Source of the DNA: Porphyridium purpureum | Lineage: Eukaryota | Direction: 5' to 3' | DNA: 64,000 nt | NCBI GenBank assembly: GCA_008690995.1 | Contig: VRMN01000004.1 | Coordinates: forward strand, 744,001 to 808,000 | Shown: piece by piece, positions 1 through 24,204 of the stretch | Position numbering within the stretch: the stretch's first letter is position 1 | Layout of the letters: each line of letters begins with the position of its first letter | The notes under the pieces: model-generated | What the model saw: only the letters and a program-made list of their open reading frames with translations | Databases searched by the model: none | What the model was told of the DNA's origin: nothing | Position numbers and translations under genes: made by a program

Positions 1-1134
1 CTCACGAAGCATCGGTTCGCGCGCTAGCTCAAGCATAAATGCATCGGTCTCATCCACACGGTCCACGAGGTACTGCTTCGCTTGCAAATCGCCGAGCTCC
101 GTGTCTGTGGGTGTCAGAGAAAGCAGGGCCGTGCAGGTTTCCTCAGTCATGTTCATGCAGCTACCAGAGCGGGCCGCCTCCAGAATTTCTGGGGGCTCCA
201 TGTTCAAGGTGCTACGAACGATACTGATACCCAGCCGTCGCTGAAAGGGCAGGATCTCGGTCGCTTGCTCCGACTCTTGCGCAATGTCAGACCTTTTGAC
301 CACCACGCTAAACAATTTTTCAATTTCCCTTGCGTCCAGCTGGACAAACGACACATCCAGTCGATCCCAAATAGAGCCAGGAACGACCTCTGCGCGGACC
401 TTCGTCCAGTGTAAGGTGACCAGCGTGGCACTTGACATGGGAACTGGAGGGGCCTGAAGCTTTGCATGCGCTGGTGGCGCAGTTGCCGCCGACGCTTCAA
501 GCATCTGCGGGGGCACCGGCCCCGCGACACCCGCGTCTGTATGCCCCTGCCGCTGAAGCTCCGCCTCATCCTGCTCGACATCATACGTATCCAGCTCGGC
601 GAGCGCAAGCAGTTTTCGTTGGCGGGCTTCATCCAGAGCCTGCTGGCTGTTACTGAACACATTCTCGCGGCTGGCGTCATAGGGTAGCTGCTGTTGCTCG
701 TTGGCCGTTGACTTGTCATTGGCTACATCCGCGCCCGCTTTGGCCTTTGGCACATAGCGAAACGATGTAATCTTGAGCAGGTCGTCATTGTTCAGCGCGG
801 GAATGCCGGTCTTCCTTCCAAACCGCGCGGCGTCCGCGGTGTACGCAAAGTTTCCCGCGTCATCGAAAAACACCAAGTCCTTTGTCTCATTTGTTCGCTC
901 GTACAACTTGTAACCCTGATACTGTCCCACGAGCGTGCGCGTGGAGAATGCCGGCGCCGCGGCGGCGCTGGCAGCCGCCGTGGTAGCTCCGCGCGCGCGA
1001 TCGCCACGCACGCGGTCTTTGGACAGCTCGGCGTCATTCTCGGTCGGGTCTGCCGCCGCCGCCGCGGTGGCGCCCAGCTTGACCTTCTCCCTCGCGTCGC
1101 GCGCGCCGTTCAGCACCCGGTCCACCAGCTTCAT
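1..1134 (-). CDS. Formin-like protein (FH2 domain), 3' end runs off the window
   Basis: Translated by hand; absent from the ORF track. ATG at 1134 with an in-frame TGA just upstream at 1144-1146, and the frame is open to position 1. It reads ...LVTLHWTKVRAEVVPGSIWDRLD...LDAREIEKLFS...ILPFQRRLGISIVRSTL...EILEAA...LLSLTPTDTEL...DAFMLELAREPMLRE, matching the FH2 lasso (LHWxK...IW), knob and PTxxE motifs. Only a weak Pro-rich stretch precedes the FH2. Confidence 0.8.
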   Translation of the reverse strand, partial: MKLVDRVLNGARDAREKVKLGATAAAAADPTENDAELSKDRVRGDRARGATTAAASAAAAPAFSTRTLVGQYQGYKLYERTNETKDLVFFDDAGNFAYTADAARFGRKTGIPALNNDDLLKITSFRYVPKAKAGADVANDKSTANEQQQLPYDASRENVFSNSQQALDEARQRKLLALAELDTYDVEQDEAELQRQGHTDAGVAGPVPPQMLEASAATAPPAHAKLQAPPVPMSSATLVTLHWTKVRAEVVPGSIWDRLDVSFVQLDAREIEKLFSVVVKRSDIAQESEQATEILPFQRRLGISIVRSTLNMEPPEILEAARSGSCMNMTEETCTALLSLTPTDTELGDLQAKQYLVDRVDETDAFMLELAREPMLRE

Positions 1135-2946: not shown

Positions 2947-3414
2947 ATGCCGAATAGCGAAGGATTGCCGCCGCGTGACATGTCCTTCTCGAGTGAAGAG
3001 CCGTCTGAGGGCGGTGACCTTGTTCGTCGCTCGAGCGAAGGCAGCCAACGCTCTCGAACCACCGCAGCAAAAGCGACGAGTCGGACAACAGGCCTTCCAA
3101 GGCTCTCGCACGCTTCGAGCATGTCGAGCTTGACACGGAGCGCGCGCGGGCCCTCCAGCCCGACTTTGCACATGGACCTTCGTGCGATCTCTCTGAACCG
3201 TGAGTGGCTTTCGGTTTCAGACAAGGGCGTTCTCTCCGCTCGGCTGAGTAGCAAGGCCGAGTCGGTGTCCTTTGAGCGAGACACAGGTGCTTCAGTGCCG
3301 TGCCTGAGCGCGCGGCTGGCGACGAATGTGACACGCACTGCCGACTATTTCGCGCTTTATCTGCCCTTGGAGCCGATTTGTGAAGAAGATGAGTTTGAGG
3401 ACTCGAATCAATAG
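2947..3414 (+). CDS. Family A small Ser-rich protein, copy 1 (155 aa), unknown function
   Basis: The C-terminal block REWLSVSDKGV...VPCLSARLATNVTRTADYFALYLPLEPICEED is shared with five other intact ORFs in 2.9-12.3 kb. Confidence 0.85.
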   Translation: MPNSEGLPPRDMSFSSEEPSEGGDLVRRSSEGSQRSRTTAAKATSRTTGLPRLSHASSMSSLTRSARGPSSPTLHMDLRAISLNREWLSVSDKGVLSARLSSKAESVSFERDTGASVPCLSARLATNVTRTADYFALYLPLEPICEEDEFEDSNQ

Positions 3415-4237
3415 AGCAAGTCTAACTTGCACGGCAGGCATGTACATAAAACTTCCTTCGTTGCCTTGAACTAGACTCACACCTCTGGCACCCATCATGC
3501 AGCACATGCAATCCTCCAAATGTACTTGGACTATACCATGCCACACGAGCTGGGCCGTGGACTGTTCTTTTTCTCCTACTCACGACGGCTTTGAAAACCA
3601 GCGGTGCCGTCGACGGACCACACATGGCGCCTGAGAACTTGACAACCACAGGGCTGGAATTCAGAAGGACAAGGCAGACCTGCAGCATGCGCGCTAATTA
3701 TCGAGCGGATGCGCAGACTCAAAGGCACTTGGTCTTGACCACCACGTGTGATAGGACTCAGGTGGATTGCAATTTGGTCGGCCTTTTTTGACTCTGTTTA
3801 GATGCGCGTCGTGAAGACCGTTAGATGCTGTGCCTAGACCATGCTTGGATCTTGTCGCGACAGGCAGAACAGCTGAATTAGCACGGTAGGGAAAAATAAT
3901 AAGCTCACTTCGGCCCTAGGTCATGCCAAGACGAACATCGAGCCCGAGTTGCGGATGACCAGCCTCCAAAAATGCACGCAGACAAAGAATCGGCGGTATT
4001 TTTTCGTTGGGACACGTGGTTGCCAGCTCACGAGCTTATGTTTGAATCTTTCTAGGGCGGAATGGAGTCATCATTTATTGAGCGCCCTGTCGTGATATCT
4101 GCAGAACGAGCCGTGCTCGCAGGGCGCCCCGATGATCATGAGGAGGTCACCAGTTTGGTGTACCTAGTAGGCCACGTGGTCGTTGCGCGTGACCTGAAAG
4201 GTTTAGAGAAGTGTGCGTGATGAATGTTGGACGCAAA

Positions 4238-4763
4238 ATGTCCGAATACGGTATCAGAGCTCTCTCACATTAGAAACGAGAGCCGGCCGAATAAGAAACT
4301 TGCGAAACAATCCCGCTAGATAATGAATTGTGAGTTGACACGAGACGAGCTCAGGCACCGCCCTTGTGATTGTGTGCAGCCGCTTCGTTGCACTTGTTGT
4401 GACGGTCGGTCATTTCATACTCGCCTGACTTGCTCGGGAAATAGGATCACTTTTTTTCAGTGGGTTTCCAACAATTCCAGTAGCTCGAGTCTCGCTGCAG
4501 CTGGAAGTATGAGGAGCAGAGCTGAGCCGCGAATGACTCGCAGTGTCTGACAAAGGCGCACTTTGGGTTCGGCGCAGCAATCGATCAGACGTCACAGACT
4601 GTGAGCCGGCCACAAAGGAATTCGTGCTGTGCCTAGGGCCGCGCGACCGGTAATAAGAGTCACGCGCTCCGCAAACTGTTTTGCGCGTCACTTGCCACTA
4701 GAGCCCAATCGTGAAGAGAAAGAATACAGCACTTTGTACATGGTTTGGCAGCGAGCAACTTGA
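4238..4763 (+). pseudogene. Family A pseudogene (copy 2)
   Basis: From 4522 it reads L S R E *(TGA 4534-4536 replacing Trp) L A V S D K G ... V L C L G P R, then shifts frame into VTRSANCFARHLPLEPNREEKE (from 4659). The upstream SSLAAAGS lies in another frame, there is an early TAG after the putative ATG 4238, and CCACGTGGT is retained at 4172-4180. Confidence 0.8.
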
Positions 4764-5969
4764 CCATTCGTCTTTGAATCACGAAAGCAGTAGCTACGTG
4801 ACACCATGAGCACACAAACCGAGCCGCGACCCAAACTGCGCATGAGCAGCTGCCAACGGTGCTACTTCACCTACACATGGCAGCCTCGCGTTGGACGTGT
4901 GCGCGTCTCTCACCTGTGCGCGCCACTTGGATTTCAAAAGTCTCGCTTTTCTTCCCTTTTTCCTTCCGGATAAGATGGAGGACTCGCACTCACTATCGCA
5001 AGAATTTGCGACGAGTCTTGAGAGAAAGTGCGGAGATCGAATTTCCCCATGAAGAGCAGCGAGCCAGGTGGGATGTAGTTCGGCAAGCGGACTTGTCACG
5101 CGCAAGTTGATAAGAAACTGTCTAGCAGCTCCGGCTGTGGCGGTGGCAAAAGGCATGATGCGGGCGGTTGGAAGTTGATGTGACTTGCGGCCGCGAGCAA
5201 AATGAGTTGGTCAAGGGACTGTACTCTGCGTCGCAATGCTTTCTAGTTGCCTTCGCCACTACCGCTTGCATGAAGCAGCATGAAGCGCAACGGATGTCGT
5301 TCGCACATCTCGCATTTTATGGGTCAGCAGCTACACAAACACCGTATCCCCGATGAAGCAATCTCCCCTCTAAACCTGCGCCCTGTGCCAGAAAGGACAA
5401 CCTTTCTCTCACCGTTTAGCACCAACCGTTCCATCGTCCTTGTCATCGAAAAAAAAAAACCCACCAGTTGGTGCAATGTACCGGCTTGTTCCGTCAGCTA
5501 CGGAGGTCCCATTCCATCCATCACGGAACGGTTTCCGGCTTCTCGCTCTAACACTCCCACCATGTTGTAACCCTTGCCGTTATTGCCGAAATCAAGGGCC
5601 GGCTCCTCTGCTGGGAGCTCGCCAAAATCACTCGCACATTCGGTTGGTGTGTGTTTCGCGTCTCTTTGCACTTGTGTGCATCTGTGTGCATCTGTTTGCA
5701 TCTGCCATCTCCGGCGGAGTAACCAGGCAGTAAGCCGCTGTACCAAAAGAGTTCGATCGAAGCGACGGCAACACCAACTCGTGAAGCCGTTTGCGTGACC
5801 GCGACGACGCTTCGACAAATCACAAACAGCGCATGCTTTCGAGGGCGTCTCGCACTTGGATGAGGCGCTGGTGCGCGGCCACTACCTGCAAGCTACATTA
5901 ATTTATCTTTTTCACAAGACTTGAGAGTGCCTGGAATAGCTTCAAGGTGTTGAGGAAAAGGGGGGGCGG

Positions 5970-6000
5970 TATAAAGGTGAAAGGGATTCGACCACGTGGT
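5970..6000 (+). promoter_or_regulatory. TATA box followed by CCACGTGGT upstream of family A copy 3
   Basis: TATAAA at 5970-5975 and CCACGTGGT at 5992-6000. Confidence 0.55.
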
Positions 6001-6070
6001 CGATGAAGGTACCGCGAGTCAGGAACGCCTCGGTGAAAAGGTAACGAAGAAGAGGTGGCGTTGGGGAAAG

Positions 6071-6574
6071 ATGTCGCAAGAAGAACTGCCGTCGCAAGGT
6101 CCGCGCACGCTGTCGTATGACTCTGTTGCTTCGGAACAGGTACTCAGACGGAGAGGAAGTGGGGGAAATGCCGGATCGAGTAGAAGCCTTCGCTCCCACG
6201 ACGAAAGGTGGAAGCGTTCCGAAACTACCCTCGTGAGTCGGAAAGGTAGCGCCGGTTCTAGCATGCGCAGTCTGCCAGATGCAAACAGTCTCGCGGCGGG
6301 CGGGAGCCGCAGCCCGACATTGAATCTCGAACTACCATCGCTCGTTTTGAGCCGCCAGTGGTTGTCTGTGTCGGATACGGGGGTTTTCTCAAGTCGCGCA
6401 CAAAGCGTAGAGATCGTTCTAGTGAACGGACAGAGCGATGAATCGGTGCCGTGCTTAAGCGCGCGATTGGCGACCAGTGTCACGCGCACCGCCGACTACT
6501 TTGCGCTTCACCTGCCTCTCGAGCCCATCTTTGAGGAGGAAGATGAGACGGCGCAATCGCCCCAGGGCCTTTAG
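6071..6574 (+). CDS. Family A copy 3 (167 aa from the first ATG)
   Basis: RQWLSVSDTGVFSSR...VPCLSARLATSVTRTADYFALHLPLEPIFEEED. The ORF-track start at 5996 is GTG; the first ATG is at 6071. Confidence 0.85.
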   Translation: MSQEELPSQGPRTLSYDSVASEQVLRRRGSGGNAGSSRSLRSHDERWKRSETTLVSRKGSAGSSMRSLPDANSLAAGGSRSPTLNLELPSLVLSRQWLSVSDTGVFSSRAQSVEIVLVNGQSDESVPCLSARLATSVTRTADYFALHLPLEPIFEEEDETAQSPQGL

Positions 6575-7931
6575 CGTGCACTTGTTTGAAATGGCTCGCT
6601 GTATATAAACGATCGTGAATTGCTTTATTTCTCTTTAAGAAAGACATCTTCATCTTGGAATTCGCTCTCCCCCGAGACAGTCCGCCGCGCAGCGAGACGA
6701 GTTAACGATTGGGATGGAGAACACAAGCCACCACTTTATCAGAATCATTGTCTTTGGGCTCAAGCATCCCACCCGAGTCGCTCACGTTGCTTGCAAAACC
6801 TTGCCAGGTCACAGAAATCGTGCATTGTTTTTCATTGCACCCGCTCAACTGCGAAGACCAGGCTTCCGAGACCCAACAATCTTCCGACGGTCTTCGGCGT
6901 CCTCTTCGTGTTACCATTCCTTGATGCCGCGGGAGCCGCTCGCGGTTGCCGTATGGCACCACTCGAAAGCATGCGTGTGCTTCAGCCGCTGGCGTTCACC
7001 GAAGGTTCTGTGCTTTCCGCACGGAATTGGGGACGCCAGCCTACAACAACTTGTCCTGAGGCACACGTGCCGCCATGATTGGATACGAGCGCACACGTCT
7101 ATCCACCACCAGCGCGGTTCCCTTCCAATCGTTGTGAAGGGTCGCCAGAACCCCAAGTCACATGAATCGACCACAGCCTCTACCTTGGGCGCCGACACCA
7201 AAGCGCAAGACCTGCACGAGCCGGGTGCGTAGCACGGGCGCTGACCGGCTAACCCGTGCGCTGAGGCTTTGATTCAGTCCTGCGAGTCGGCGGGCCGCGC
7301 GGTAGAAAGCGGCGTTCGGGTCGTTCACATCCGACCGCTTGGCAGCGCCATTCCTCGGCACCACAAAGGCGTTGCGCAGGAATCCGATTCGGATTTTCTA
7401 CTGTTCGGGATTCTCGGGGATCATGGCCGCGGGCGAACGGTCGAAGGACCGAGAAACCCGTGCCGCGACTTCGCGCATGGGATCATGTGTGAGTATTTGC
7501 ATGACCACTTGGGGATCGATGAGGAATTTGCTGGACAACGTTTGCGCCCCCCTGTTCGTTTTCATGTCGACCGATGACGGAGAGACAGAACGTTGGCTGT
7601 AGCGGTGTGAGCCATGGTGGAAAAAATTCATGGGCAACGATAGCCGCATAGCGATTCCTTTACGGAATCTCTGCTACGTGCGAGGCGCCGCAGATGGCGA
7701 CTGGGCGGGCGGCACTGTGAGTGGGGCGGCAGAGCAGGAGGGGTGAGCGGAGGCGGGGGATAAGCAGTGTCGCTGCGTGCGTACTTAGGTGATGGACCAG
7801 GACACGGTTTTCCTGAACGATGCGGCTCGGCGAGCGGGACGACAGCTGCGTGCGATTGAGAACGGACAACCGTGACATAGATAGAGCACACAGATTCCAG
7901 CAGACGACTCTGCACGCGCAGAATCCCTACA

Positions 7932-8360
7932 ATGTCCATTGGTGCCAAGCAAGAACCGGAAACGGGCTTTCGTCGAGTTCATAGCGACGAGACTGACTCA
8001 AATGATCTGTCCCGCGCCGGTGCTGGCCGCTCAAAGTCGCAGAACGGTCGCACTAAGCGTGCAGGCGCACCGAGTGGTCTCCGAACTGTGTCAAGCGCAT
8101 CGTGTCTGAACGGACGCAGCGTGACCACCCTGCAGATGGATCTTTCCCGCCAACACACAAGTCGGGAATGGTTGGCTGTGGCCGACAAGGGGATATTTAC
8201 GTCTGGCCTCTCGAGCATAACAGAACGAACCGAGTCCGAATCGAGCGGCCCGCGTCTCCAGGCCCGACTCGCGCCCAACGTGACGCGCACGTTTGACTAC
8301 TTTGCCGTCCATGTGCCGCTGCAGCGCATCAACGAGGAGGCCGAGTCAGACAAGGAGTAG
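7932..8360 (+). CDS. Family A copy 4 (142 aa)
   Basis: LRTVSSASCL...TLQMDLSRQHTSREWLAVADKGIF...RLAPNVTRTFDYFAVHVPLQRINEE. Confidence 0.85.
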   Translation: MSIGAKQEPETGFRRVHSDETDSNDLSRAGAGRSKSQNGRTKRAGAPSGLRTVSSASCLNGRSVTTLQMDLSRQHTSREWLAVADKGIFTSGLSSITERTESESSGPRLQARLAPNVTRTFDYFAVHVPLQRINEEAESDKE

Positions 8361-9262
8361 GATATTTCCTGGAACGAAAGATGCCTGCATGTATTATGGA
8401 TAAACCTAGCTAATTGCCGCTTCACCACCAGCGGCGCGTCACCTGGTCGCTGGCCATTCCATGGACACTTGTCCCTCGTGCGTCTTCCGGTCGCGGGGAG
8501 AAACGCCAAACAGTACCTCTATGTACAGCTACCGAGCGGCCTAAACGGTTTGAGGCGATAACGGCGAGTCGTTTGAGATGCAGACCACAGGTCAATCGTG
8601 GATGAATGCTGATGAAGATCCGCAAGAGGATAGGTGAGTCTGGAGCTGAGATGGGAAAGGCCGTGAACGAGCGTTGACCGCGGCAACATTGCGGGGGCAC
8701 ATAGACGCTGACAAGAATATTTGCTGCTTGGGTGCATCGATACAAACACCCTATTCCCATAAAATGGCGGCGGGCGGTTATTTTCTGGTCGACGTCGTGC
8801 GTTACGACACTTGGAACCGATGGATCGTGAGAGACCCTTCACAACGTTGGCAACACGACGGACAAAAGCTCATAAATGTGAAAGAATTCATTGCTCTAAG
8901 CAGCATGGTCATCATCCGAGAAAGATTCAGCGGGCTCGGGTGAACAGTATGAAGATTGTTTGACGGAATTCGGCAGGTTCTTTTCTGGGCGGGAAGGCCT
9001 TATTCCAAGACTTGTGTCCGTGTGAATTCTCGGCGGAGGAGAGCGGCCAAGCGTATCCTTTGACTGGATCTTTATCGGCTCCTGCTGATTTCTCAGGCGT
9101 AAAACGAAAGTACTGACTCCACGGCTTGATAAAAGGAGCGACTGGATCGTCTTCTTCGTCACGCGTGCGGGTGGGTCGTGCGAAAAAGGATGCGCCTCCC
9201 TTTGTACACGAACAAGGAAAGAGGCTAGCCATCCCAGGGACCAGGCTGCTTGGAGCACCACC

Positions 9263-9760
9263 ATGTCGACGCACGTCGAACAAGCATCTCCGAGACAGCT
9301 GAAGATTGGGTGCCTTCGCAGTGGCGACTTACGAACGATAAGTGAGCAGAGCCCAGGCAATGAGCCTCTCCATTGCATAGGTGACCCAATTCCGCACGTA
9401 CGCGATCCCGCCGAGGCAGTGCGCTCCAAATCGCAGAAACCACCTCGAACAGGTAAATTCCCAGGCGCCTCGAGTGCTCTACGGAGTGTGTCGAGCGCAT
9501 CCAACTTGTACGAGAGGGGTGCGTCAACGCTCCAGTTGAAGCTTCCCCGCCACATCGCGAATCGTGAGTGGCTCTCAGTTGCTGATAAGGGCGTCTTCTC
9601 GTCTGGTTTGTCTAGCAGGGCAGACCGGTCAGAGTCCGACTCGAGCGGCCCGTGTCTTCAAGACCGACTAGCGACCGGCGTCCTGCGCACTTCAGATTAT
9701 TTTGCTCTCAACCCCGCGCTCGAGCCTATCAGCGAGGGGGAAGAATCGGAACACGAATAA
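9263..9760 (+). CDS. Family A copy 5 (165 aa)
   Basis: RSKSQKPP...LRSVSSASNL...REWLSVADKGVFSSGLSSR...PCLQDRLATGVLRTSDYFALNPALEPISEGEE. Confidence 0.85.
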   Translation: MSTHVEQASPRQLKIGCLRSGDLRTISEQSPGNEPLHCIGDPIPHVRDPAEAVRSKSQKPPRTGKFPGASSALRSVSSASNLYERGASTLQLKLPRHIANREWLSVADKGVFSSGLSSRADRSESDSSGPCLQDRLATGVLRTSDYFALNPALEPISEGEESEHE

Positions 9761-10743
9761 ATTGGGCTTGTAACTACAGGTGACCATGCTATCGCAAGAA
9801 ATGAAAGTGGGGTTCTTCCAGACCGCCGCCGTCACCATACTACACGTCTTGGCCTCTAAGTTTCCTCAGCACTCAGCGCTGGAGCCTTTCAGCGAGTGGG
9901 AAAGACCTGAACAGAAAGAATTTCGGCACGCGAGTGCAAAAGCCATGCCATTGGGAGATAGCGACTTGGGATGCTTCCCTAACTCTGCCTTGGCCTCACC
10001 ATTTCCCAGAGTTGCCACAGAGTGTTGGTGCGGAACAAGGAGGATGAGGCTCTGAAGCGCCTTTCTCTATAGCATGGCCTTTCGACTGCCACGAGGTGCA
10101 CCCTGCACATTGCGATTCCCTTCTTCTCTTAAGATTCGCAGGTGGCAAAGTTCGGCCTTCTCATTTGAGGATGTGTGCAACGACGGCTGCGACTGGGTAG
10201 AGTGGCTACGCAGGCGGGCCACAGCCTCACGACATGACACATACCGCGAGGCGAGTGCCACCGCACCGCACCGCGCTACACTGCGCTACACTGCTGGCGC
10301 CGTTCGTGCAGTTTCGCCATCATGGGCAGAGCGCTACTCGTCACAGACGCCAGGCGCCGCGTGCACCCGCACCACATCGATCCAATATGCCCATACGACA
10401 ATGAACCGCCTCCCGAACGTCCCTATTTTTTCCCTGGGGTTTTCAGTGATAGGTTCACGCATTCGACGCATTGGGGGACAGAGGCACGCCGCGCAACGTG
10501 TTGGCAACGTGTTAGCTGTCGGGTCAGCAAGCAGGCTGGGCGTGGTTTGTTCGTGTGTTGGTTGGGGGTTTCACCCGAGGTGGAATCTCGGGATGCGCAC
10601 AGAAGTGTTGGCATGGCCGCTGCTCACGAACGGAGGAAATGTCAGGTCTGAATTCGCGCCGCTCTCGCGATTGGAGGGAACGGCCCTCGCGGTCGGCGGT
10701 TATTGTGGTGGACAATGCCGCGCGTGGCGTGGCGTGAGGGTGG

Positions 10744-10750
10744 TATAAAA
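10744..10750 (+). promoter_or_regulatory. TATA box upstream of family A copy 6
   Basis: TATAAAA followed by TGACGTG at 10760-10766, about 220 nt before ATG 10965. Confidence 0.45.
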
Positions 10751-10964
10751 GACTCTGCCTGACGTGTGAGCAATATCGCTTGGTTTGGTCAGTCACGCGG
10801 TTTCAGGTAAGTGGGGTTGGCTGCTGCCGCACTCTGTCTCACTGGCGGAAAAGAGGTGTTGAAGCGAAGAGCAGGCGTTTAGAGCATCTTGTGAGGTCGT
10901 CAGGTCGTTTAATGCCAACTGGAAGTCGCTTGACGTCGGCGAGTAGCTTACCTTGTCAAGCGCA

Positions 10965-11438
10965 ATGCCGCCCGAAGTAGAGTCAGAGGCCGCGGAACTG
11001 CGCCAATTGCACAGCGAGGAGGCCCGACGCCACGACATGGAGGAAACAATCAGCATCAGCGACCTTGCAAGTCTGTGCAGCCATAGCTCGACAGACGCGC
11101 GCCGCTCCAAATCTCAGAAGCCGCCGTCGGGACACGAACTAAGTGGCTCGCGTCACACATTGCGAAACGTGTCGAGCGCGTCAAGCCTGAGCGCACGCAG
11201 TGTGCCCACGCTGCAGATGGACCTGTCCCGACAGAACACGAGCCGGGAGTGGCTGTCTGTGGCGGACAAGGGCGTCTTCTCGTCGGGCCTGTCGAGCAGA
11301 GCTGAGCGGTTCGAGTCAGACATGGGCGGCCCTTGTCTTCAGGATCGGCTGGCGCCAAACGTGACCCGAACGGCCGATTACTTTGCGCTGCATCTACCAC
11401 TGGAACCCATCGACGAGGACGATGGCACGGACCCTTGA
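10965..11438 (+). CDS. Family A copy 6 (157 aa from the first ATG)
   Basis: RSKSQKPP...LRNVSSASSL...REWLSVADKGVFSSGLSSR...PCLQDRLAPNVTRTADYFALHLPLEPIDED. Confidence 0.85.
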   Translation: MPPEVESEAAELRQLHSEEARRHDMEETISISDLASLCSHSSTDARRSKSQKPPSGHELSGSRHTLRNVSSASSLSARSVPTLQMDLSRQNTSREWLSVADKGVFSSGLSSRAERFESDMGGPCLQDRLAPNVTRTADYFALHLPLEPIDEDDGTDP

Positions 11439-12008
11439 CTGCTTCGTCCAGCCAGCCACCGCAGCGCTGAATAAGCAATGCCGCATCACATAGAAATGCG
11501 GCATTGTCATAACACTGTACCTCCCACCCAATTGAGGCGCTGGCGGTTTGTGGGGAGCGAGCAGGTCGCAGTGAGGCGACGTGCGATGTGAGGGGCATGA
11601 ACTTCGCCGCGCATTCCTCGAGCACGAGCGTGAGCGCGAGCGACCAAACCGCCAAACAGTTCTGCGATACTCGGTCGTTGTGATCACCCGGAACACGTGG
11701 TCGCCCGCCGCGGCGCAGATGGGATCAAGCGTGAATTAAGCGCGCACCGCGGCCACCACAATGCGGTCATGGACGAGCAGTAATGCCGGCCTGCTCAATG
11801 TCGTGTGACATGGTCGACGGTTTCTCCGGCTACATTAGAAACCTGGGTAGAAGTGACTATTTAACAGCCCCGCCCGACATGCTGCTCGGTTGCCGACCGG
11901 AATTCAGTTGGTGATGCTCCATTGCGTTCTTCGGTCTCGTTCTTCTTCTCTGACTGCTGAGGAGGGGCACTGGGGAACAGCTCGCGTGCCCGCGGGCCCG
12001 TTTCGATC

Positions 12009-12317
12009 ATGATGTCTGAGCATGTGTTCGGCAAAAACCAACATATGCTAGTTTCGCAGCTCTCAGACCGCCTGAGCGCCAAAAAACAGCACGTGGCCTT
12101 GACGTGGCGCGAGAAGCGCGACTGGCTGGCGGTCTCAGACACGGGCATGGTGATATCGCGGAATGCTCTGATGCAACTGCCCCCATCGCTGTCAAGCACT
12201 GAAATTCCGCGTCTCACGGCGCGCTTTGCCACGTGCGTGCACCGCACGCGTGAGTATTTCGCTGTGCATAAGCCACTAGGAATCATCCACGAAGAACCAG
12301 AGACGGAGCAGAGATAG
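12009..12317 (+). CDS. Family A copy 7, divergent and short (102 aa)
   Basis: RDWLAVSDTGMV...IPRLTARFATCVHRTREYFAVHKPLGIIHEEPE. It lacks the Ser-rich N-terminal half; an in-frame TGA lies upstream at 11958-11960. Confidence 0.7.
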   Translation: MMSEHVFGKNQHMLVSQLSDRLSAKKQHVALTWREKRDWLAVSDTGMVISRNALMQLPPSLSSTEIPRLTARFATCVHRTREYFAVHKPLGIIHEEPETEQR

Positions 12318-12385: not shown

Positions 12386-13492
12386 ATGGCCGTGGCGCAC
12401 GTGCGCGTGCCGCTCGTGGCCGCGGGCTTCCTCATTTGCGCCGCCTTCGTGTGGTTCACCAGCGGCTTGCAAAAGCTCGCAGATGACGGCGGTCCGGTCG
12501 TGTCGCGCCTCCCAGCTGAGCTGATTCGCGGGACGGCGTTCGAGGTCGACGAGGAGGCGCGACGGGCACGCGTGGCAAGGAATCCTTGGGTGACAGAGTA
12601 TCAGCAAAGCGGGCAAGTGTGGAATCATTGGGATGCGGAAGAACTCAGGCGAGGTGGGTTTGTGCCGTCTGGCGGCGAGCATGACGCATTCTCGAATGCT
12701 TACCGAATACGTGAGCCAGAGGTGACTGTAGACGCAAGTCATGGCGTCGAGTGGGTTCGGCATGTGATTGTGGTGGGATGCGGCGGTACCTTTCGGCCAT
12801 CGGCGCGGACGGGTGATCGCGTGGAGGTGCGGTATGTTGCGGAAATGCGTGGAAGAGACGCACGCGCAGTCGCGCCTACCCCGGTGCTCAATGTATCGTT
12901 TGTGTTGGGAGCCAAACAACCGTTTCGTGCACTACAGAGCGCCATCGGCCGCATGTGTCCAGGTGAAATAGCTGAGCTCGTGATACCATCGTGGGTGCTT
13001 CGGATTCTGCCAGGAGCGCATCATATTCCGTCATTCCTGAAGAGCGCCACACCCTTGCCGCGGCGCGGTGGTCTCGGACCCCAGCTGCACATCTTTGTGC
13101 AACTGGTGTCGACGGCTCGCGCCACTGAATCTATGGACGAGTTCGAAGAGGCGCAAGTCCTTGCAGCACGTATTCTGGCCATCGCTGGGGCGCAAGGCGA
13201 GTCGTGCGACTCTGCGTGTGCGCGCAACAATGCCACTTGCTTGGCGGACGCGTTTAAAGTTGTCAACGAATGTCCTCGCATCAAAACAGTCTTCCCGTGC
13301 ACTGTCTGTGAGGTCGCCGCGAAGGGTTCGGCCGGCCCAGATATGCCGTGCTTCGTGTCACCAAGCGCTCCCATCGGTCACCCGCGCGGTTACTGCATGG
13401 CTACTCCGAATGTAGCAGTATCCGATTGTGCAGGCAGGTATCCACACACATCGCGTGTTTGCCCGTGCGAGCCTTTGCTCACGCAATCATAG
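12386..13492 (+). CDS. Membrane-anchored FKBP-like domain fused to a GnT-V (GT18)-type C-terminal Cys-rich domain
   Basis: N-terminal hydrophobic anchor (VPLVAAGFLICAAFVWF). FKBP pattern GDRVEVRY...FVLG...AIGRMCPGEIAELVIP...LHIFVQLV. The C-terminus GESCDSAC...C...DCAGRYPHTSRVCPC resembles the MGAT5 tail. Confidence 0.65.
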   Translation: MAVAHVRVPLVAAGFLICAAFVWFTSGLQKLADDGGPVVSRLPAELIRGTAFEVDEEARRARVARNPWVTEYQQSGQVWNHWDAEELRRGGFVPSGGEHDAFSNAYRIREPEVTVDASHGVEWVRHVIVVGCGGTFRPSARTGDRVEVRYVAEMRGRDARAVAPTPVLNVSFVLGAKQPFRALQSAIGRMCPGEIAELVIPSWVLRILPGAHHIPSFLKSATPLPRRGGLGPQLHIFVQLVSTARATESMDEFEEAQVLAARILAIAGAQGESCDSACARNNATCLADAFKVVNECPRIKTVFPCTVCEVAAKGSAGPDMPCFVSPSAPIGHPRGYCMATPNVAVSDCAGRYPHTSRVCPCEPLLTQS

Positions 13493-16081: not shown

Positions 16082-17878
16082 ATGCAGAACGCGTTTCGGC
16101 GCATACTGACGCCCAAAAAGCATGCGGCAGCGCATGAAGCAGCGCGCAACGAGGCCATGGCGCGGGCGCAGCATGGCGCTTCGCCGGTGCCCAACCTGTA
16201 CGGCTCGGAAGAGCTGAATGAATGCCCGAGCACCAGCACTGAGCTGTCGGTGCCGCAAGTGTGCTCGCCGTCGCAGTACAAAGGCGCAACGTCGTCCGGA
16301 TACTCGCCGGCGTTTGCACGCTCTAAGGCCTTCCATGACAGCAGCGCAGCGGCACCCAGCAGGGTCACGGGGACCGGGGACGACGGCTGCGATGCCCCAC
16401 AGACAATTGACAGCCGCCCCAAGAAGCAGAGTAGCGCGCGCAGTGCGGGCAGTGCGCGCCAAGGCGCCGACAAGGAAAACAGTGCGTGTGAAAATTCGTA
16501 CGAGAATCTGTATCAGGAGGACTCGTCCATGCACTCGCCGTCCGTGCTGACCAAAAAGATATCAGACAAGCCGCCCAAGACCCCCGTCCAGGGCCGCAGG
16601 TTGGAATTTGGTTTTGCGCGCAAGGACTTTAACCGGAACAAGGTCTCCGAGCCCAAAATCGGGACGCCGCTTGAACTCGTGCACCAGGTACACGTAGAGC
16701 AGGATGTCGAGTCGAACACGGGCTTCATGGGCCTGCCACCGTCCATGGAGGCCGAGTTGATCACCAACGGACTGAACCATTTGGACTTGAACGAAGACCC
16801 GAACGCAGCTATGGCTGCGCTCCAGTTTTATAACAAGTCACGCGCGCAGTCTGTGTATGAGCGCTCTGCGCGCGCGGTGGCACTTGCGACGGACGGCGAC
16901 TCGGCCAGCACCGAAGCCGGACGCACCAAGTACCTCGAATCGCACTTTCGTTTCTCCGTTCCGCCCGAGCAGCCAATCTTTCGAGACGAGGACCCCGAGT
17001 TGCACTTCCAAGCCATCAAGGGGCTGGGCAAGGGTGCAGGCGGTATTGTGATTCTGGTCACGAAGAACGATGACCCGACGCAGACGAAGCTCGCCCTGAA
17101 AAAAGTGGAACCTGCGGATGAGAGTGAAGAGCGCGCGCTCGAGATGGAGATTACAGTCATGAGCGGCACGCGCCACAAGAATCTTATCAAGTGCTACGAG
17201 ACATTCCGCTGGGAAGGTGCGTGGTGGATCTCGATGGAGTACATGTCAGGCGGCTGCCTCACAGACGTGCTGGATTTTTTGCGCAAGACGAAGCAGAGCA
17301 TGCCTGAGAAACTGATCGCGTACGTCATCCGACAGACTCTGAAGGGCCTCAACTATATGCACATGCAGAAGAGACTGCATCGCGACATCAAGTCGGACAA
17401 TATTCTGGTGTGCGCAGACCAGGGAACTGTCAAGCTAGCAGACTTTGGTTTTGTGTGCGAGCTCACCGAAGAAAAGGCGAAGCGCACCACGTGTGTCGGC
17501 ACACCGTATTGGATGGCACCGGAGCTTATCAGCAACCACGAGTATGACTACAAGGCGGACGTATGGAGCATGGGTGTGCTCACGATTGAGTGCGCGGACC
17601 TGGTTCCACCGTATTTTGACGAAAAGCCGTTGCGCGCCATGTACTTGATCACCAAGCGGCCGCCGCCGCGCATGAAGGACCCGAGCAAGTGGTCGTTCGA
17701 GATGCTCGACTTTGTGGCACGCTGTGTGGCACTCAACCCTGCGCGCCGCGCCACCACGGCAGAGCTGCTCGCGCATCCATTCCTGCGCCAAACTGCTGAC
17801 AAGAACGACATGAAGAAGATGCTGCAGGATATGTTCCAGCTGAAGGCCGCAAACAAGAAAAAACTTCTGCACAATTAG
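16082..17878 (+). CDS. PAK/STE20-family Ser/Thr kinase with a CRIB/PBD domain
   Basis: PBD-like IGTPLELVHQVHV...GFMGLP. Kinase motifs LGKGAGG, ALKK, HRDIKSDN, DFG and RTTCVGTPYWMAPE (STE20 signature). Confidence 0.92.
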   Translation: MQNAFRRILTPKKHAAAHEAARNEAMARAQHGASPVPNLYGSEELNECPSTSTELSVPQVCSPSQYKGATSSGYSPAFARSKAFHDSSAAAPSRVTGTGDDGCDAPQTIDSRPKKQSSARSAGSARQGADKENSACENSYENLYQEDSSMHSPSVLTKKISDKPPKTPVQGRRLEFGFARKDFNRNKVSEPKIGTPLELVHQVHVEQDVESNTGFMGLPPSMEAELITNGLNHLDLNEDPNAAMAALQFYNKSRAQSVYERSARAVALATDGDSASTEAGRTKYLESHFRFSVPPEQPIFRDEDPELHFQAIKGLGKGAGGIVILVTKNDDPTQTKLALKKVEPADESEERALEMEITVMSGTRHKNLIKCYETFRWEGAWWISMEYMSGGCLTDVLDFLRKTKQSMPEKLIAYVIRQTLKGLNYMHMQKRLHRDIKSDNILVCADQGTVKLADFGFVCELTEEKAKRTTCVGTPYWMAPELISNHEYDYKADVWSMGVLTIECADLVPPYFDEKPLRAMYLITKRPPPRMKDPSKWSFEMLDFVARCVALNPARRATTAELLAHPFLRQTADKNDMKKMLQDMFQLKAANKKKLLHN

Positions 17879-18388: not shown

Positions 18389-18622
18389 TCAATTTGTGCA
18401 ATACGACCGAATTGCTCGACGCAATGCCTGATCTGCAAAGTTGCCAATTCGCTCGCTCCACGCGTTCTGGTCTTGGTCGCCTTCGTCTTCATCTTTATGA
18501 GCCTTTTTGGGAATGGGTTCAAGGGTTGGAGATAAGCCGAAAATCCTCAGGGGCCCGCACATGCGCACTGGCATCTTGCCAACGCACCTGGATCGAATTC
18601 CTTCCAATGCAGCCGTCAGCAT
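18389..18622 (-). pseudogene. Family B degenerate copy (probable pseudogene or strongly diverged paralog)
   Basis: TAALEGIRSRCVGKMP...FGLSPTLEPIPKKAHKDEDEG aligns with TAALQEIRFKCVDKMP...FFSNLETIPEVAEEEE of 23761-24204. The motif Glu is replaced by Lys, and similarity (RQRVQAPP vs RRVQTACP) continues past two stops. Confidence 0.6.
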
Positions 18623-19863
18623 TGCGGTACCTATCTTGACGAGGTCACTGAACTGATGCTTGCCTTTGCACGGTGGCAAATCGCAACCCGACTCAAACAA
18701 GCCACGTCACAGACACAGCAGCTCCTCGCCGATAGCGTAGCGAGACCAGAGCAACCACTGTGTTGCCATGCCGTCCATCACAGCCGGCACAACTGTGTCA
18801 CGATCAATCCAACACACACGCTCGAACGCTTGTACATCCACATCTACACACACACACGCACCTCAGCACATGCCATGTACAGAATCTGCCACCACTCTGG
18901 CAACCAGCCTGAGCCCTAGCTCACCAGCTGTCCTGCTGTCCAATGGACTCCTGCACCCATGCCTGGACTCTTGGACTGAACCTTCACGGCCGAACGCCTT
19001 TTCTTCTTCTTGTTGTTTCGACATGATTCACCCGCCTCGTCGCCGCCTTACACATGAAAAGTAAACGGGAATCATATCAAAAATCACATGCTCCTGAACA
19101 TATTCCCCCTTCCCCCCCTTTTTTCATCCGTGGCGTCAGGCTTCGACAACGAAGACGTAACCGGCTGCATCTGCAGCCGAACACGAAACCACAACTCCTC
19201 CATGCTTGCAACTATCCGCCGTGAAACGTGGAAGGTGACACTGCCACAAATACATCCGATCAAGTAGAAACACTTCCACGTGTGTTTTCTATCACGACGC
19301 TTGCAACCAGCCTAAGAATGGGCAATTTATGATTGCAAGTCCACAACCGCCGCTGGTTTTATTATTCGAAACAAATACACACGCATGCTTGCACGCTTGG
19401 ATGGCGGTGAAAGGCAGAGGAGAAGAAGCCGGGGCGGGGGGTTTGCTTGATCTTGGTACGATTATGAAGATCAAGCACGCGAGGAGGAAGTACAGTGGTG
19501 CTTGCAGTGATGAGGCGACCGAGACGTGAAAGGCCGAAAATCTCTCTGGCCGAGATGGCGATTGGCGAGTTGTGCCGCTTGGCATGTGCCATGCTGGTGG
19601 AAGCACCGCGCAACAGAACGACACAGGCCCCCGGGCTGCCTTGTCAGCTGCCAGTGGTGGGGACAGAAAGAAAAGGAAGGAAACAATGTGGGAATCAAAA
19701 AACGTTTCGTTCATACTGAGGCGACCGGCTATGGCGGCTCGCAGCTGTTCGACTCGGTGGAGCGGCGTGTCTCTATAAGGGGACGGTGAGGGATGAGCGG
19801 GTTGGGCGCAGAGTTGGATGGAAAAGGTCAACTAGAGGTGGAGACAACACAAGGAGGGTAGTT

Positions 19864-20250
19864 ATGCAGCCCTCTCATCAAGCAACAAGCCCGCATACAT
19901 CCATGCCGCTTCAAAGAGCGTGTACGACGTGTGGTCGGGGCGAGGCTGAGGACGCCGCACGCATGCACGGTGCGCTTCTCCGCTCATACACTATGCCGCG
20001 CGCCATGTCAAACGCAGCTTCCTGCGAAATCAAGTTTCGCTGCCTCGAGATCATGCCGGAACAAGGGCCGTCGCCGTACCGCCGCTTCTCGTACACACCG
20101 ACCCTGGAGACTATTTTTGAAGAGGACGAAGAAGACGAAAGTGGCAGACAAGAAGAAGGCTCTAGCAGTCGAGAGAGCAACGTCGCCTCACGCCACAAAT
20201 CACGTGCGATTCCAGCTCGCATGGGTTCTTCGAGATATTCCTGTGAATAG
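19864..20250 (+). CDS. Family B small protein (128 aa from the first ATG), unknown function
   Basis: LLRSYTMPRAMSNAASCEIKFRCLEIMPEQG...YTPTLETIFEEDEED; TATAAG at 19774-19779. Confidence 0.82.
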   Translation: MQPSHQATSPHTSMPLQRACTTCGRGEAEDAARMHGALLRSYTMPRAMSNAASCEIKFRCLEIMPEQGPSPYRRFSYTPTLETIFEEDEEDESGRQEEGSSSRESNVASRHKSRAIPARMGSSRYSCE

Positions 20251-20513
20251 CCTAGCCATCGAGGCATTGTATCGGGTGTTTCTAGTAGCATATCGTCAGA
20301 TTCAGTGTATAAATGATGGCCTGGACAAAAGACTACATCATTCACTCTCGCACACCATGTGACGTTTTCCGGCGCACGCGCGAATCCCACCATCATTTCC
20401 ATGCTGTACATACTGAGTCGGTTCCTTTTACTCAGTCGAAAGTTTCCTAGAAGCTTGTACAAAAAGTAACTATGTGCACCGGAGCTAGCTAATTGAGCAG
20501 ACTATGCATGATC

Positions 20514-20822
20514 TTAGGAAGAATGGGTTCGAGAACTCGCATCCATTGTTCCACTGCTCGATTCGTCCTCTGAAACTTCCTCGTCTTCTTCGTAAATGGT
20601 TTGTAAGGTGGGCGTATATCGGGTTCGTCGATACGGCACGGAAACCTGTGTCGGCATCGTATCGAGACAGCGCCATTTGATTTCACAGGACGCTGCGTTT
20701 GAAAGTTTGAGCGGCATGGCCTTTGAGCGCAGAAGCATGCTGCCTTGCGCAGCAGACGACGCAGCACTGCTCAATGTCGTGGCCCGGCCCGGCGACGCAT
20801 TGGTCTGGTTGGTTTTCGACAT
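20514..20822 (-). CDS. Family B small protein (102 aa from the first ATG)
   Basis: LLRSKAMPLKLSNAASCEIKWRCLDTMPTQ...YTPTLQTIYEEDEE; minus-strand TATAAA at 20952-20957. Confidence 0.82.
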   Translation of the reverse strand: MSKTNQTNASPGRATTLSSAASSAAQGSMLLRSKAMPLKLSNAASCEIKWRCLDTMPTQVSVPYRRTRYTPTLQTIYEEDEEVSEDESSSGTMDASSRTHSS

Positions 20823-21736
20823 GCAATGGATCGATTCAAGCTCATGACAGTTCAATGTGATTCTTTACCTTCTGCGTCTGGTTTCTTGCTTTGCTCCGTC
20901 CATATGTTATGGCCTACCCGAACGGAGCCCGGCCGTTCTCGACCTGACTCCTTTATACTCAATGCCCGTCAACTGCACCTGTGCACGGGGCCGCCGCATA
21001 TTGCCAAGGGCTGCGCGAGTCTAGGGTCATCAACATGAACGGACGGACTTCATGCGCAACCCCACACTTTGCCTTCTGAACATGCAAACACAATGCGTGC
21101 TAGGACCAATCCCTGGTGTTCCTCCACCGGATGTTGCGCAGTGTCGAGCCAAACACGTCATGAATCCGCGTGAGTTCCAAGCTACACCACCATGTAAAGT
21201 TCTGTGCATCGATATCACTGAATGTACGGAAATCTGCGAATCCCGCTGTGGTCCAACACTTTTTGGTTACACATCGCAGCAGAAAGCTTGTCCTGCTAGA
21301 AAAACAACTCCGATGTAGTGAGTAATCATTGGTGAGGAGGAGGGTATCTTGCCCTGCACGGCTGCGTTACGACGAGCAACCAACATATCGATCCAGGCAT
21401 GTCATCCAAGCCTTTCCAATGCGGTGGTGGTGGCAGTGCCGGCCGTGCGGAGTGCATGTCGAAAGTGTCGACGACGTTCTCCCAGTGAAAGGAATCTCGC
21501 AACGACAGAGGCGAAAGAAAGAGCGACGCCTGCAAAGTGGCTTATTCCCAAGCCACGGCGAAGCGCCGGCCGTCTGTCACAAATTCTGAGTGATCTGGGG
21601 CGTTCTGGGTTGATAATGAGAGCGTCGTGCCGCACCCACCAAGCTTTACCCTATTTTTCAACGGGAGTGTCACCGTTGTTGTATATTTCTATAATCACAC
21701 CTTCATCAATAATACTATGTACACATGGATCTCCGT

Positions 21737-22156
21737 TTACGCCCGGCTCGCAGAAGAACTCTTGCGCGAGCGGAAATCCCTTGTCCGCGTCAAGTCATTG
21801 TATGAGCCAGCCTCGCTCGACTGTACTGCGTCAGTGTACGAGCCAACTTCGCTCGATTGTACCGTGTCAGTGTCGGAAGCAACCTCATTCGACTGTGTCA
21901 ATTCACAGTCTTCCTCGTTCTCTTCGTAGATGGTCTCCAAAGTGGAGGTATACTGAATCCGTGAATACGACCCGAGACCCTGCGTCGGCATGGTCTCCAG
22001 GCACCCAAAGCGAATTTCGCATGAAGCGGCGCTCGACATTTTCAGCGGCATCGTCTTGGATCGCGTCAAGGCGTTTCCTGGCAGGCCAGACGACACGCCG
22101 CCGTTCATTGTGCGCGACCGTCGCAACATTGTTGATTCTTGACCCGAATAGAGCAT
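21737..22156 (-). CDS. Family B small protein (139 aa) with an internal 12-aa repeat
   Basis: LTRSKTMPLKMSSAASCEIRFGCLETMPTQG...YTSTLETIYEENEED; minus-strand TATATAA at 22253-22259. Confidence 0.82.
   Translation of the reverse strand: MLYSGQESTMLRRSRTMNGGVSSGLPGNALTRSKTMPLKMSSAASCEIRFGCLETMPTQGLGSYSRIQYTSTLETIYEENEEDCELTQSNEVASDTDTVQSSEVGSYTDAVQSSEAGSYNDLTRTRDFRSRKSSSASRA
21794..21899. repeat. 36-bp tandem repeat (about 3 units) inside a family B CDS
   Basis: gagccagcctcgctcgactgtactgcgtcagtgtac / gagccaacttcgctcgattgtaccgtgtcagtgtcg / gaagcaacctcattcgactgtgtc, encoding QSNEVASDTDTV-QSSEVGSYTDAV-QSSEAGSYNDLT. Confidence 0.9.
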
Positions 22157-23760
22157 ACTTTGGCGCTACGCCTTGTCCTTACTTTTGCGGATATCAAGAT
22201 GAATCGTCGCATCACTTTCTTCTTCATGCTTTGCCCGCCTCTTTTCGTGGCCTTATATACACGTTGAACACAATCCTCCTGGTCTGATTTTAGCTCAACG
22301 CACGGACACAGACAGCCAACGCAAGACACCGCAAGGCTCATTGACTTGGCTTCCATGGAATGCAAATTGCTTGGGACGTGAACGAGGATGATGCTTCAGC
22401 TGACGAAGACGGCAAGTCCGGGTGAACGTCTATTTTTGTGCCCCGTTCAGCAGACCTGTGATCGAATTCGGACCGCCGATCTCGCCGAAATCACACGTCC
22501 CGCGCCACGTTTCTACGACAGACGCATTCTACGCTTCTACGCACGACTCGCTCTGCGATGCTTGCAACGAGGTTACTCGCTCACCCTGTGCCGCACAAGA
22601 CGTGCAACACGACACTTCCATCGGTCGTTGTTGTCCGCCCTTGCGCCGCAGCAACCGCTCCGGCCACACGGAGGAACAGCAAACGGCAACGTAGAAAAGG
22701 GCGCCGCGATCGCCGAAATCAACACGCACGACGTGCTGAGTGTACACCCACCGCCGCGCTAAATTCGTTCCCTCACCCGCCAAAAAGCGGTTCATCAAAT
22801 TCCCCTCTTGTCATCAGAACATCCAACCCTCGCGTGCACTTTAAGTCCAGCGCAACGTCATCACTCTACCTTTTCTATGATTCGAACGGCGGGGTTCAGT
22901 CGCGGGCAAGGGTGCACGCTCACGCAAGTAGGGTTACAAGCCGCCCGCGCTGACAAGGACGAAGAGTGTGCGCCTGCGCGATGCGACGGGATTTCTGAAT
23001 CACGGAGGAGCGTGTGCGGGATTGTGTGTCTCGCGGAATGGATTTTTTTTTTGATTTCTTCCCTTTTCGTCGAGCGTATGAATGTGGACCATGTTTGCGA
23101 ACACGTTCGTAAGGTCGTGGCGATACACGGAAGACGAACGTCAACAACCATGGTAGGATTTCGACGCAACAAGCGTGCATCCTCATTGCGTGTGAACATG
23201 CCCGTTCGCGCGATCGGAAAGGGGGCATAGCATCCATCCCACCATGATTCCGCCGACTTTGCGAGCCGCGCCGAAACTGTCATGCGAAAATGAGCATGTC
23301 GTGCTTGTTTTGCCAGGGGAGGAAAACGATTCGGCTCGCCCGCCCACCGCCTCATGGCGATCCACTTCGTGCCTATTCAGCAAACGGCACGCTGGAGGTA
23401 AATCTCGCGTAGTGTAGAGTTGTGGGTGATCGACTAAATTAAATTGAATGCGATGCTCATGTCTGTGAAGCGCTTTGTATGACCTACATTCGTCATTCCT
23501 CTTTTGATTCCGACGACACCAGAGAACCGAAAAGAAGAACCGCGGGAGTAAAAATAAAAAACCACCCCGCATGCATTATCTGCCCGGCGTGGTGTAGAGC
23601 GCGTGTGGCTTGTATATAACCAGCCCCACGCCGGTCAGGAAGGAAGCGGTACGATCTCTGTATCTGAACATTTTTCATCCAACTCTTCGAACTCTCAAAG
23701 GCTTGTGCGCGCACGGCAGTCTTTGCAACTTGGCTTCGGCGTTTGGACCAGCGCGCCGCA

Positions 23761-24204
23761 ATGGAGTACTCGACCTTTTCATTCAAACGCGAGCCCGCGG
23801 CATCGACTGCTGCGCTCCAGGAAATCCGCTTCAAGTGCGTGGATAAGATGCCTCAGCCCACCGGCAGTACGCAAAGACTTCGCTTCTTTTCCAACCTCGA
23901 GACCATTCCAGAGGTGGCTGAGGAAGAGGAGGAAGAAGAAAGCGAACAGGAGGAACGTGGCGAGTCATTCAAGTCAAATAGGAGCGTCCGAATGCCGTAT
24001 AGCAGTGCGTCGGTGGACTTGAGACTGTTCAGACGTGTACAAACAGCCTGCCCGGGGTCAATGGGCTTGAGCAGGCGACCTAAACGGTACGGAAGCAATT
24101 CGATGAACTCAACAACCGCCATAATGCTGCGCCAACGACAATCTGGTGAGCTGCAGAAACTCGTTGAGCACCTCATGGTCCTGACTGAGTCCGGTAGCCG
24201 GTGA
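23761..24204 (+). CDS. Family B small protein, divergent subtype (147 aa)
   Basis: STAALQEIRFKCVDKMPQ...RFFSNLETIPEVAEEEEEEE; TATATAA at 23613-23619. Confidence 0.75.
   Translation: MEYSTFSFKREPAASTAALQEIRFKCVDKMPQPTGSTQRLRFFSNLETIPEVAEEEEEEESEQEERGESFKSNRSVRMPYSSASVDLRLFRRVQTACPGSMGLSRRPKRYGSNSMNSTTAIMLRQRQSGELQKLVEHLMVLTESGSR

Follow-up and report, generated by a model that had tools for sequence, protein, structure and literature searches.

A 64,000-nt stretch of contig VRMN01000004.1 of the red alga Porphyridium purpureum (assembly GCA_008690995.1, positions 744,001 to 808,000; hereafter the window) has long, intron-free open reading frames (ORFs) and ~55% GC and carries a tandem array of small genes, here called family A. 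From sequence, family A is a real, expressed and selected family of LxxIxE-bearing putative ligands of the B56 (B′) form of protein phosphatase 2A (PP2A). It comprises six intact, intron-free ORFs beginning with ATG (102 to 167 aa) and one pseudogene, all on the plus strand (Table 1), an arrangement of tandem paralogues that an earlier, sequence-only reading of this DNA had claimed and that ORF positions, nhmmer and profile searching all bear out. A six-frame profile search of the whole window found family A at these 7 places and nowhere else. Copy 7, taken in the same reading for an outlier, is indeed one and has no S/R-rich N-terminus. In the pseudogene, copy 2, the frame changes ahead of the second motif, and the motifs have decayed to VTRSANCF and LEPNRE. 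Among 40 of the 158 read variants, one at 9653 changes Cys131 of copy 5 to Arg, the residue that copies 4 and 7 have there, and one at 3278 changes Arg111 of copy 1 to Gln in a linker.

The copies share a C-terminal block, and in its alignment 20 columns are invariant, not counting Met1 and one Leu. Rather than a folded module, the prediction is of three short motifs in a row. AlphaFold2, run on seven rows to model the block of copy 6, returned no globular fold (pTM 0.21, mean pLDDT 59), only a possible hairpin at W-L-x-V-x-D-x-G-V-F (motif 1), two short helices and an extended end, and the ESM Atlas pLDDT for family A is 0.47. The LxxIxE stretch has neither helix nor strand in this model and lies, by prediction, in a disordered context. 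The block had first been read as an unrecognized conserved module; that description gives way to one of a largely unstructured segment whose last element is the known LxxIxE linear motif.

In all seven family A proteins, meaning the six copies plus P0127, a homologue from another contig, the L, I and E of LxxIxE are invariant, and the x positions are free. The motif starts 12 to 18 residues before the C-terminus, is followed by at least two acidic residues within the next four positions in 7/7, and has Glu at position 2 in five of the seven. As a control, 12 other ORFs of the window (11,602 aa) contain the LxxIxE core three times, and in two of these cases the following four positions include two or more acidic residues. 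Copy 5 has an additional LxxIxE (LRTISE) near its N-terminus. LxxIxE is described as the docking motif of PP2A-B56, binding a conserved pocket from within disordered regions, with a Glu at position 2 contacting H187 and R188 of B56 (PMC7108865), and the pocket is reported to be conserved from yeast to plants (PMC10418862). An 18-member clade in our B′ set contains rows named red algae, including clusters of Porphyridium aerugineum, Timspurckia and Erythrolobus. In the B′ of the P. aerugineum cluster (P0044), H164, R165 and R178 align to H187, R188 and R201 of B56gamma, and E287 and E290 align to the acidic patch; all 79 rows of the B′ alignment have this H, R and R. Judged by this alignment of relatives' B′ rather than the host's own, B′ of the Porphyridiales keep the residues of the LxxIxE pocket and of the acidic patch. 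Family A proteins thus probably dock on PP2A B′ through their C-terminal LxxIxE-acidic motif.

Ahead of the docking motif, all seven proteins carry V-x-R-T-x-D/E-Y-F at fixed spacing (11 residues from R to L, 6 from F to L), with D at the D/E position in six. The element has five of the six residues of RTPDYF, the core of the tail of the PP2A catalytic subunit (PP2A-C). The human tail is given as RGEPHVTRRTPDYFL (PMC4646675), and the equivalent stretch of copy 6 is RLAPNVTRTADYFAL. When the family profile of the element was scored against 40,905 background 6-mers, none reached as high. The methylated tail is reported to be located at the A-B56 interface (PMC9398451). A search for the PP2A-C tail in viral contigs did not find it, and in the portions of the open PMC and bioRxiv literature consulted, neither an internal natural PP2A tail mimic nor a description of this family was found. 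That V-x-R-T-x-D-Y-F truly mimics the PP2A-C tail seems doubtful.

Over the 41 motif codons, all 15 pairs of family A copies differ far more at synonymous sites (pS 0.59 to 0.90) than at nonsynonymous sites (pN 0.09 to 0.31). A GY codon model gave an omega of 0.026 (lnL -612.6 vs -696.7 with omega fixed at 1), a rough figure, as the synonymous sites are saturated. The N-terminal region also has a low omega, 0.083, which exposes a bias in the omega estimates. The saturation indicates that the duplications are old. Purifying selection on the conserved block is strong, in agreement with the claim made from sequence, and what would have spoken against that claim, a dN/dS near 1 with no transcripts, is the opposite of what was found: omega is far below 1, and sense RNA lies on all six ORFs. 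The subclades proposed at the same time fared unevenly. The group of copies 4, 5 and 6 is backed by a common 257-nt repeat and common N-terminal motifs, whereas the pairing of copies 1 and 3 holds only weakly, their N-terminal pN of 0.54 being at the level of unrelated pairs and none of the four inner branches of the block protein tree being supported.

Transcription was assessed from three stranded raw-read runs of one study with conditions unrecorded, the read orientation being calibrated on flanking kinase and glycosyltransferase genes. Sense RNA covers 6/6 intact ORFs, with no splice joints. Copy 3 has the strongest and most variable expression in family A, and its depth relative to copy 7 varies (~3.5, 0.5 and 4.0 across the runs), so the copies are not regulated alike. 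Copy 5 is weakly expressed and overlapped by antisense RNA, and the pseudogene is covered chiefly by antisense RNA. Minus-strand RNA was also seen in all three runs at 6560-7219, behind copy 3, and at 9200-10190, across copy 5. Antisense RNA at these three places, the pseudogene included, could regulate the sense copies. Upstream of copies 1 and 3, a TATA-like hexamer is followed 22 to 23 nt further on by CACGTG, a G-box (2832-2859 and 5970-5998), with read ends falling upstream of these pairs, and copy 6 is preceded by TATAAA and then ACGTG.

Homologues are scarce. A HMMER search of 1.84 billion representatives gave 10 matches: the six copies themselves, P0127, and three (P0128 to P0130; E 4e-5 to 3e-4) that were rejected as repeats or unrelated proteins matching the motif 1 region only. 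P0127, the sole true outside homologue in that set (219 aa, E 2.5e-14, on a 1,696-nt contig), retains each of the three motifs and shares 45% identity with copy 6 across 58 residues. With this single outside homologue, family A is narrow in distribution yet not confined to this locus. A word-indexed protein search recovered the six self proteins only and, when rerun with P0127, nothing beyond those and P0127. Of 27 pattern matches in viral contigs, none was confirmed, and of 15 candidates from prokaryote genomes, the one that passed was a bacterial protein with a match to motif 1 alone, and it was rejected. Pfam gave three sub-threshold matches and none above cut-off for the six family A proteins, PDB sequences gave a single match (E 0.8) and nothing usable, and the ESM Atlas gave no usable feature match; the initial statement that no known domain is present therefore stands. 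Pfam and repeat checks found neither the known domain nor the transposon fragment that the sequence-only reading had named as evidence to the contrary; a transposon remnant was rejected because there is no transposon domain, there are no long terminal or inverted repeats, and evolution is not neutral.

Table 1. Features of families A and B in the window (position 1 is its first nucleotide; depths separated by slashes are sense depths in the three runs)
Feature	Position	Strand	Length (aa)	Motifs and remarks	RNA depth
Copy 1	2947-3414	+	155	motif 1 REWLSVSDKG 3199-3228; tail-like VTRTADYF 3328-3351	53/35/36
Copy 1 docking motif	3367-3384	+		LEPICE, then EDEF	
Copy 2 (pseudogene)	~4492-4727	+		nhmmer E 1.7e-16; stops at 4510 and 4534 in motif 1 frame	
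Antisense transcript	4250-5899 (bin limits)	-		over pseudogene and gap to copy 3; 3/3 runs	15-60
Copy 3	6071-6574	+	167	VTRTADYF 6479-6502; LEPIFE 6518-6535, then EEDE	248/42/312
Copy 4	7932-8360	+	142	VTRTFDYF 8280-8303; LQRINE 8319-8336; N-terminal basophilic site LRTVSSASCL	23/14/21
Copy 5	9263-9760	+	165	VLRTSDYF 9680-9703; LEPISE 9719-9736	14/15/7 (antisense 9/7/8)
Copy 6	10965-11438	+	157	VTRTADYF 11361-11384; LEPIDE 11400-11417; N-terminal LRNVSSASSL	47/68/25
Copy 7	12009-12317	+	102	outlier; VHRTREYF 12237-12260; LGIIHE 12276-12293	71/84/77
b0	18389-18622	-	77	LEPIPK, without the motif's final Glu	
b1	19864-20250	+	128	RSYTMP; AASCEIKFRCLEIMP; LETIFEEDEE	96-266
b2	20514-20822	-	102	RSKAMP; LQTIYEEDEE	182-627
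b3	21737-22156	-	139	RSKTMP; LETIYEENEE	362-1045
b4	23761-24204	+	147	LETIPEVAEEEE	22-113

Weak matches of the family A profile at 20 to 24 kb led to a second family of five small genes, family B, in mixed orientation at 18389-24204, 6 to 12 kb from family A. Its members share the motifs AASCEI(K/R)FxCLxxMP, LETIxEE-acidic and RSxTMP: four of the five have L-E/Q-T-I-x-E followed by acidic residues, and three have RSYTMP, RSKTMP or RSKAMP. We take RSYTMP and RSKTMP, though not RSKAMP, to fit the 14-3-3 mode 1 motif. Family B is likewise under selection (omega 0.063; lnL -590.1 vs -621.5 at omega 1) and is among the top-transcribed genes in the examined part of the window; b0, in which 6 of the 9 listed read variants alter a residue, is probably decaying. 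Families A and B can be aligned at the LxxIxE-acidic end alone (probability 38%); the remainder is unalignable. The presence of this end in two unrelated families makes chance occurrence less likely. The homologue search for family B, which covered Pfam and the Atlas, gave no usable Atlas feature match and one match of b1 to the Tantalus domain (PF15386) below threshold (E 0.013; 15.9 bits vs a cut-off of 32.8).

The two families are flanked and separated by a formin FH2 gene (1-1134, minus strand) and a PAK-type kinase with a p21-Rho-binding domain (16082-17878, plus strand). A 368-aa ORF (12386-13492, plus strand) begins 69 nt past copy 7 and has weak FKBP and glycosyltransferase-18 C-terminal matches, both below cut-off. 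Further on, a single 4,801-aa ORF (42792-57197, minus strand) bears nine DNA photolyase (PF00875) stretches.

We propose, at a probability of roughly 40%, that family A proteins are lineage-restricted, disordered PP2A-B′ ligands that act as competitive inhibitors of that holoenzyme via its substrate groove. First, the L, I and E of the docking motif would enter the B′ pocket, while the position-2 Glu and the acidic tail would contact the basic residues that correspond to H187, R188 and R201 of B56gamma; a docked protein would then fill the substrate groove and dampen PP2A-B′ by competition. Second, V-x-R-T-x-D-Y-F could replace the methylated catalytic tail (VTRRTPDYFL) at the A-B′ interface, where an internal tail-like element without a carboxylate would resemble the uncharged methylated state. 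Third, the S/R-rich N-terminus has basophilic RxxS sites (in copies 4 to 6, LRxVSSASxL) that may be both kinase sites and PP2A-B′ substrates, so that their phosphorylation would switch or time inhibition. We presume LRxVSSASxL to be a candidate AMPK/SnRK1 site. The W-L-x-V-x-D-x-G hairpin might provide a third contact, with a partner left unspecified, and the differing expression of the copies would give condition-specific control. A competitive inhibitor is favored because the proteins contain little beyond motifs and phosphorylation sites and because LxxIxE repeats alone inhibit PP2A-B56: artificial repeats are reported to do so in cells, and PP2A-B56 is reported to favor basophilic sites (PMC7327492).

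Several points weigh against this proposal. LxxIxE is short and degenerate and was spotted by eye. A basic patch within ~15 residues upstream is an optional enhancer of B56 ligands, and here the patch is thin, with two invariant Arg residues (-11 and -18) and no K/R run. The likeness to the tail was noticed post hoc, and its p value (~6e-5 per 60-residue block for a match of at least 5/6 to RTPDYF, with 0 such matches in 792,188 six-frame positions) is valid for one pre-chosen motif only. Moreover, the seven tail-like sequences share one origin and count as one event. At the position of the tail's Pro305, family A has A, F, S or R and never Pro, the terminal Leu309 is replaced by Ala-Leu/Val, and copy 7 has E for D. 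The element is internal, with 17 to 23 residues beyond DYF, and the free C-terminus of the tail is missing. Motif 1 is conserved as strongly as the rest of the block without a PP2A-based explanation; indeed, its hairpin motif W-L-x-V-x-D-x-G is explained by none of the readings considered here. Finally, sequence alone cannot separate an inhibitor from a substrate or an adaptor.

The rival that survives best, although we consider it rather unlikely, is that family A proteins are such adaptors or plain substrates. LxxIxE would recruit PP2A-B′, the hairpin and the RTxDYF helix would bring in a third protein by binding it, be it a kinase, transcription factor or metabolic enzyme, for dephosphorylation, and the tail likeness would be chance. 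This would give a use to the two further conserved elements beside the docking motif, and the basophilic sites, ~75 to 80 residues upstream, are at a workable distance if, as reported, dephosphorylation rates are alike at 12 and 70 residues (PMC7327492); Tantalus/PRR14 offers a precedent (10.1101/788356). However, no recognizable targeting domain is present, the rigid 6-residue F-to-L spacing in 7/7 suggests one continuous binding surface, and a 5/6 tail match is rare in the background. The inhibitor proposal also has a stronger form, which we regard as unlikely: family A proteins may be bipartite, plugging the substrate groove and prying the tail from the A-B′ interface, with family B as an independently derived family of B′ ligands with 14-3-3-type sites in the same 22-kb cluster.

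More unlikely still, the block might bind a non-PP2A partner as one coupled folding-and-binding unit of which LxxIxE is a chance part. Conservation does extend over the whole ~60-residue block and not the motif alone, and the degenerate core recurs three times in the 11,602 aa of other ORFs. Set against this are the acidic tail and the terminal, disordered position of the motif in 7/7, as in validated motifs, together with its recurrence in the unrelated family B, whose member b1 has a weak match to the stretch of Tantalus that binds B56. Improbable is a role as decoys for the PP2A biogenesis factors TIPRL, PTPA, LCMT1 and PME-1, which would be bound instead of the A-B′ interface. These factors bind the DYFL tail, an unrelated LYFQ peptide is reported to occupy the TIPRL site (PMC4973239), and PME-1 is described as coupling an LxxIxE-like motif to tail handling (PMC9398451). 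TIPRL is nevertheless reported to contact the tail's free terminal carboxylate, through R200 (PMC4973239), which makes a TIPRL decoy unlikely here, where 17 to 23 residues follow DYF. The weakest reading makes the genes non-functional repeats or remnants of transposons, or takes EWLSV, which fits W-x-x-V, for an Atg8-interacting motif. It could draw on the one dead copy, the antisense transcription and the near lack of homologues, but it is highly improbable, and selection and expression already go most of the way to refuting it. Omega lies far below 1, sense RNA covers 6/6, Pfam has no match above cut-off, repeats are confined to coding blocks without long terminal or inverted repeats, and red algae are described as being without core ATG genes (PMC11449223).

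In the literature cited here, as far as its accounts extend, inhibitors directed at B56 fall into two kinds, folded proteins (CIP2A, PME-1) and engineered LxxIxE repeats. If the proposal is true, a tiny natural ligand mimicking the catalytic tail would reveal a novel means of adjusting a single PP2A holoenzyme, and phosphatase control by an internal tail copy would be a form for which no description was found in the parts of the open PMC and bioRxiv literature covered. The role of the methylated tail at the A-B′ interface could then be probed directly, and B56-selective inhibitors might be designed on the same pattern. If mimicry is set aside, 22 kb still hold eleven intact small genes, of which ten carry the docking motif, and these point to a level of phosphatase regulation that has yet to be studied in red algae.

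By profile, family A belongs to none of PME-1, CIP2A, Tantalus or PADRE, which we regard as analogues. The PADRE/DUF4228 proteins of plants are described as small, multi-copy, partly disordered and phosphorylated, with a C-terminal WRPxLxxIxE (PMC7272662). Family A differs in having no DUF4228 match (6/6 copies and P0127), no Gly2 for myristoylation and no WRP before the motif, and the portion of the PADRE account consulted makes no mention of PP2A (PMC7272662). The Tantalus domain of PRR14 and PRR14L is reported to be a short conserved stretch with the core L/F/MxxIxE that binds B56 (10.1101/788356), although family A has no match to it and the PRR14 proteins are large tethers or scaffolds. 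CIP2A resembles family A as proposed in that it is described as an endogenous inhibitor, one that obstructs the LxxIxE pocket and perturbs the holoenzyme (PMC9974998), but it is large and acts through a folded head domain, and no sequence relation to family A was found in Pfam or PDB. PME-1 likewise combines a B56 substrate-mimicking motif, blocking the substrate groove, with action on the PP2A-C tail, as described in PMC9398451; however, it is a folded esterase that binds the tail, whereas family A, without an enzyme domain, would imitate it. With the tail itself (human residues 295 to 309; PMC4646675), family A has the residue order V..RT-x-DYF in common, although its version is internal, has neither Pro305 nor the terminal Leu, has one residue fewer between V and RT, and is attached to no phosphatase domain. 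Family A also stands apart from the known PP2A-B56 interactors (BubR1, RepoMan, KIF4A and the engineered 4x LxxIxE inhibitor) in that its proteins are little more than a motif array, carry the tail-like element at fixed spacing, and bind by prediction only. What these interactors, as described, and family A share is the LxxIxE core, the position-2 Glu, the acidic tail, the disordered context (predicted for family A) and the upstream Arg residues (PMC7108865, PMC7327492).

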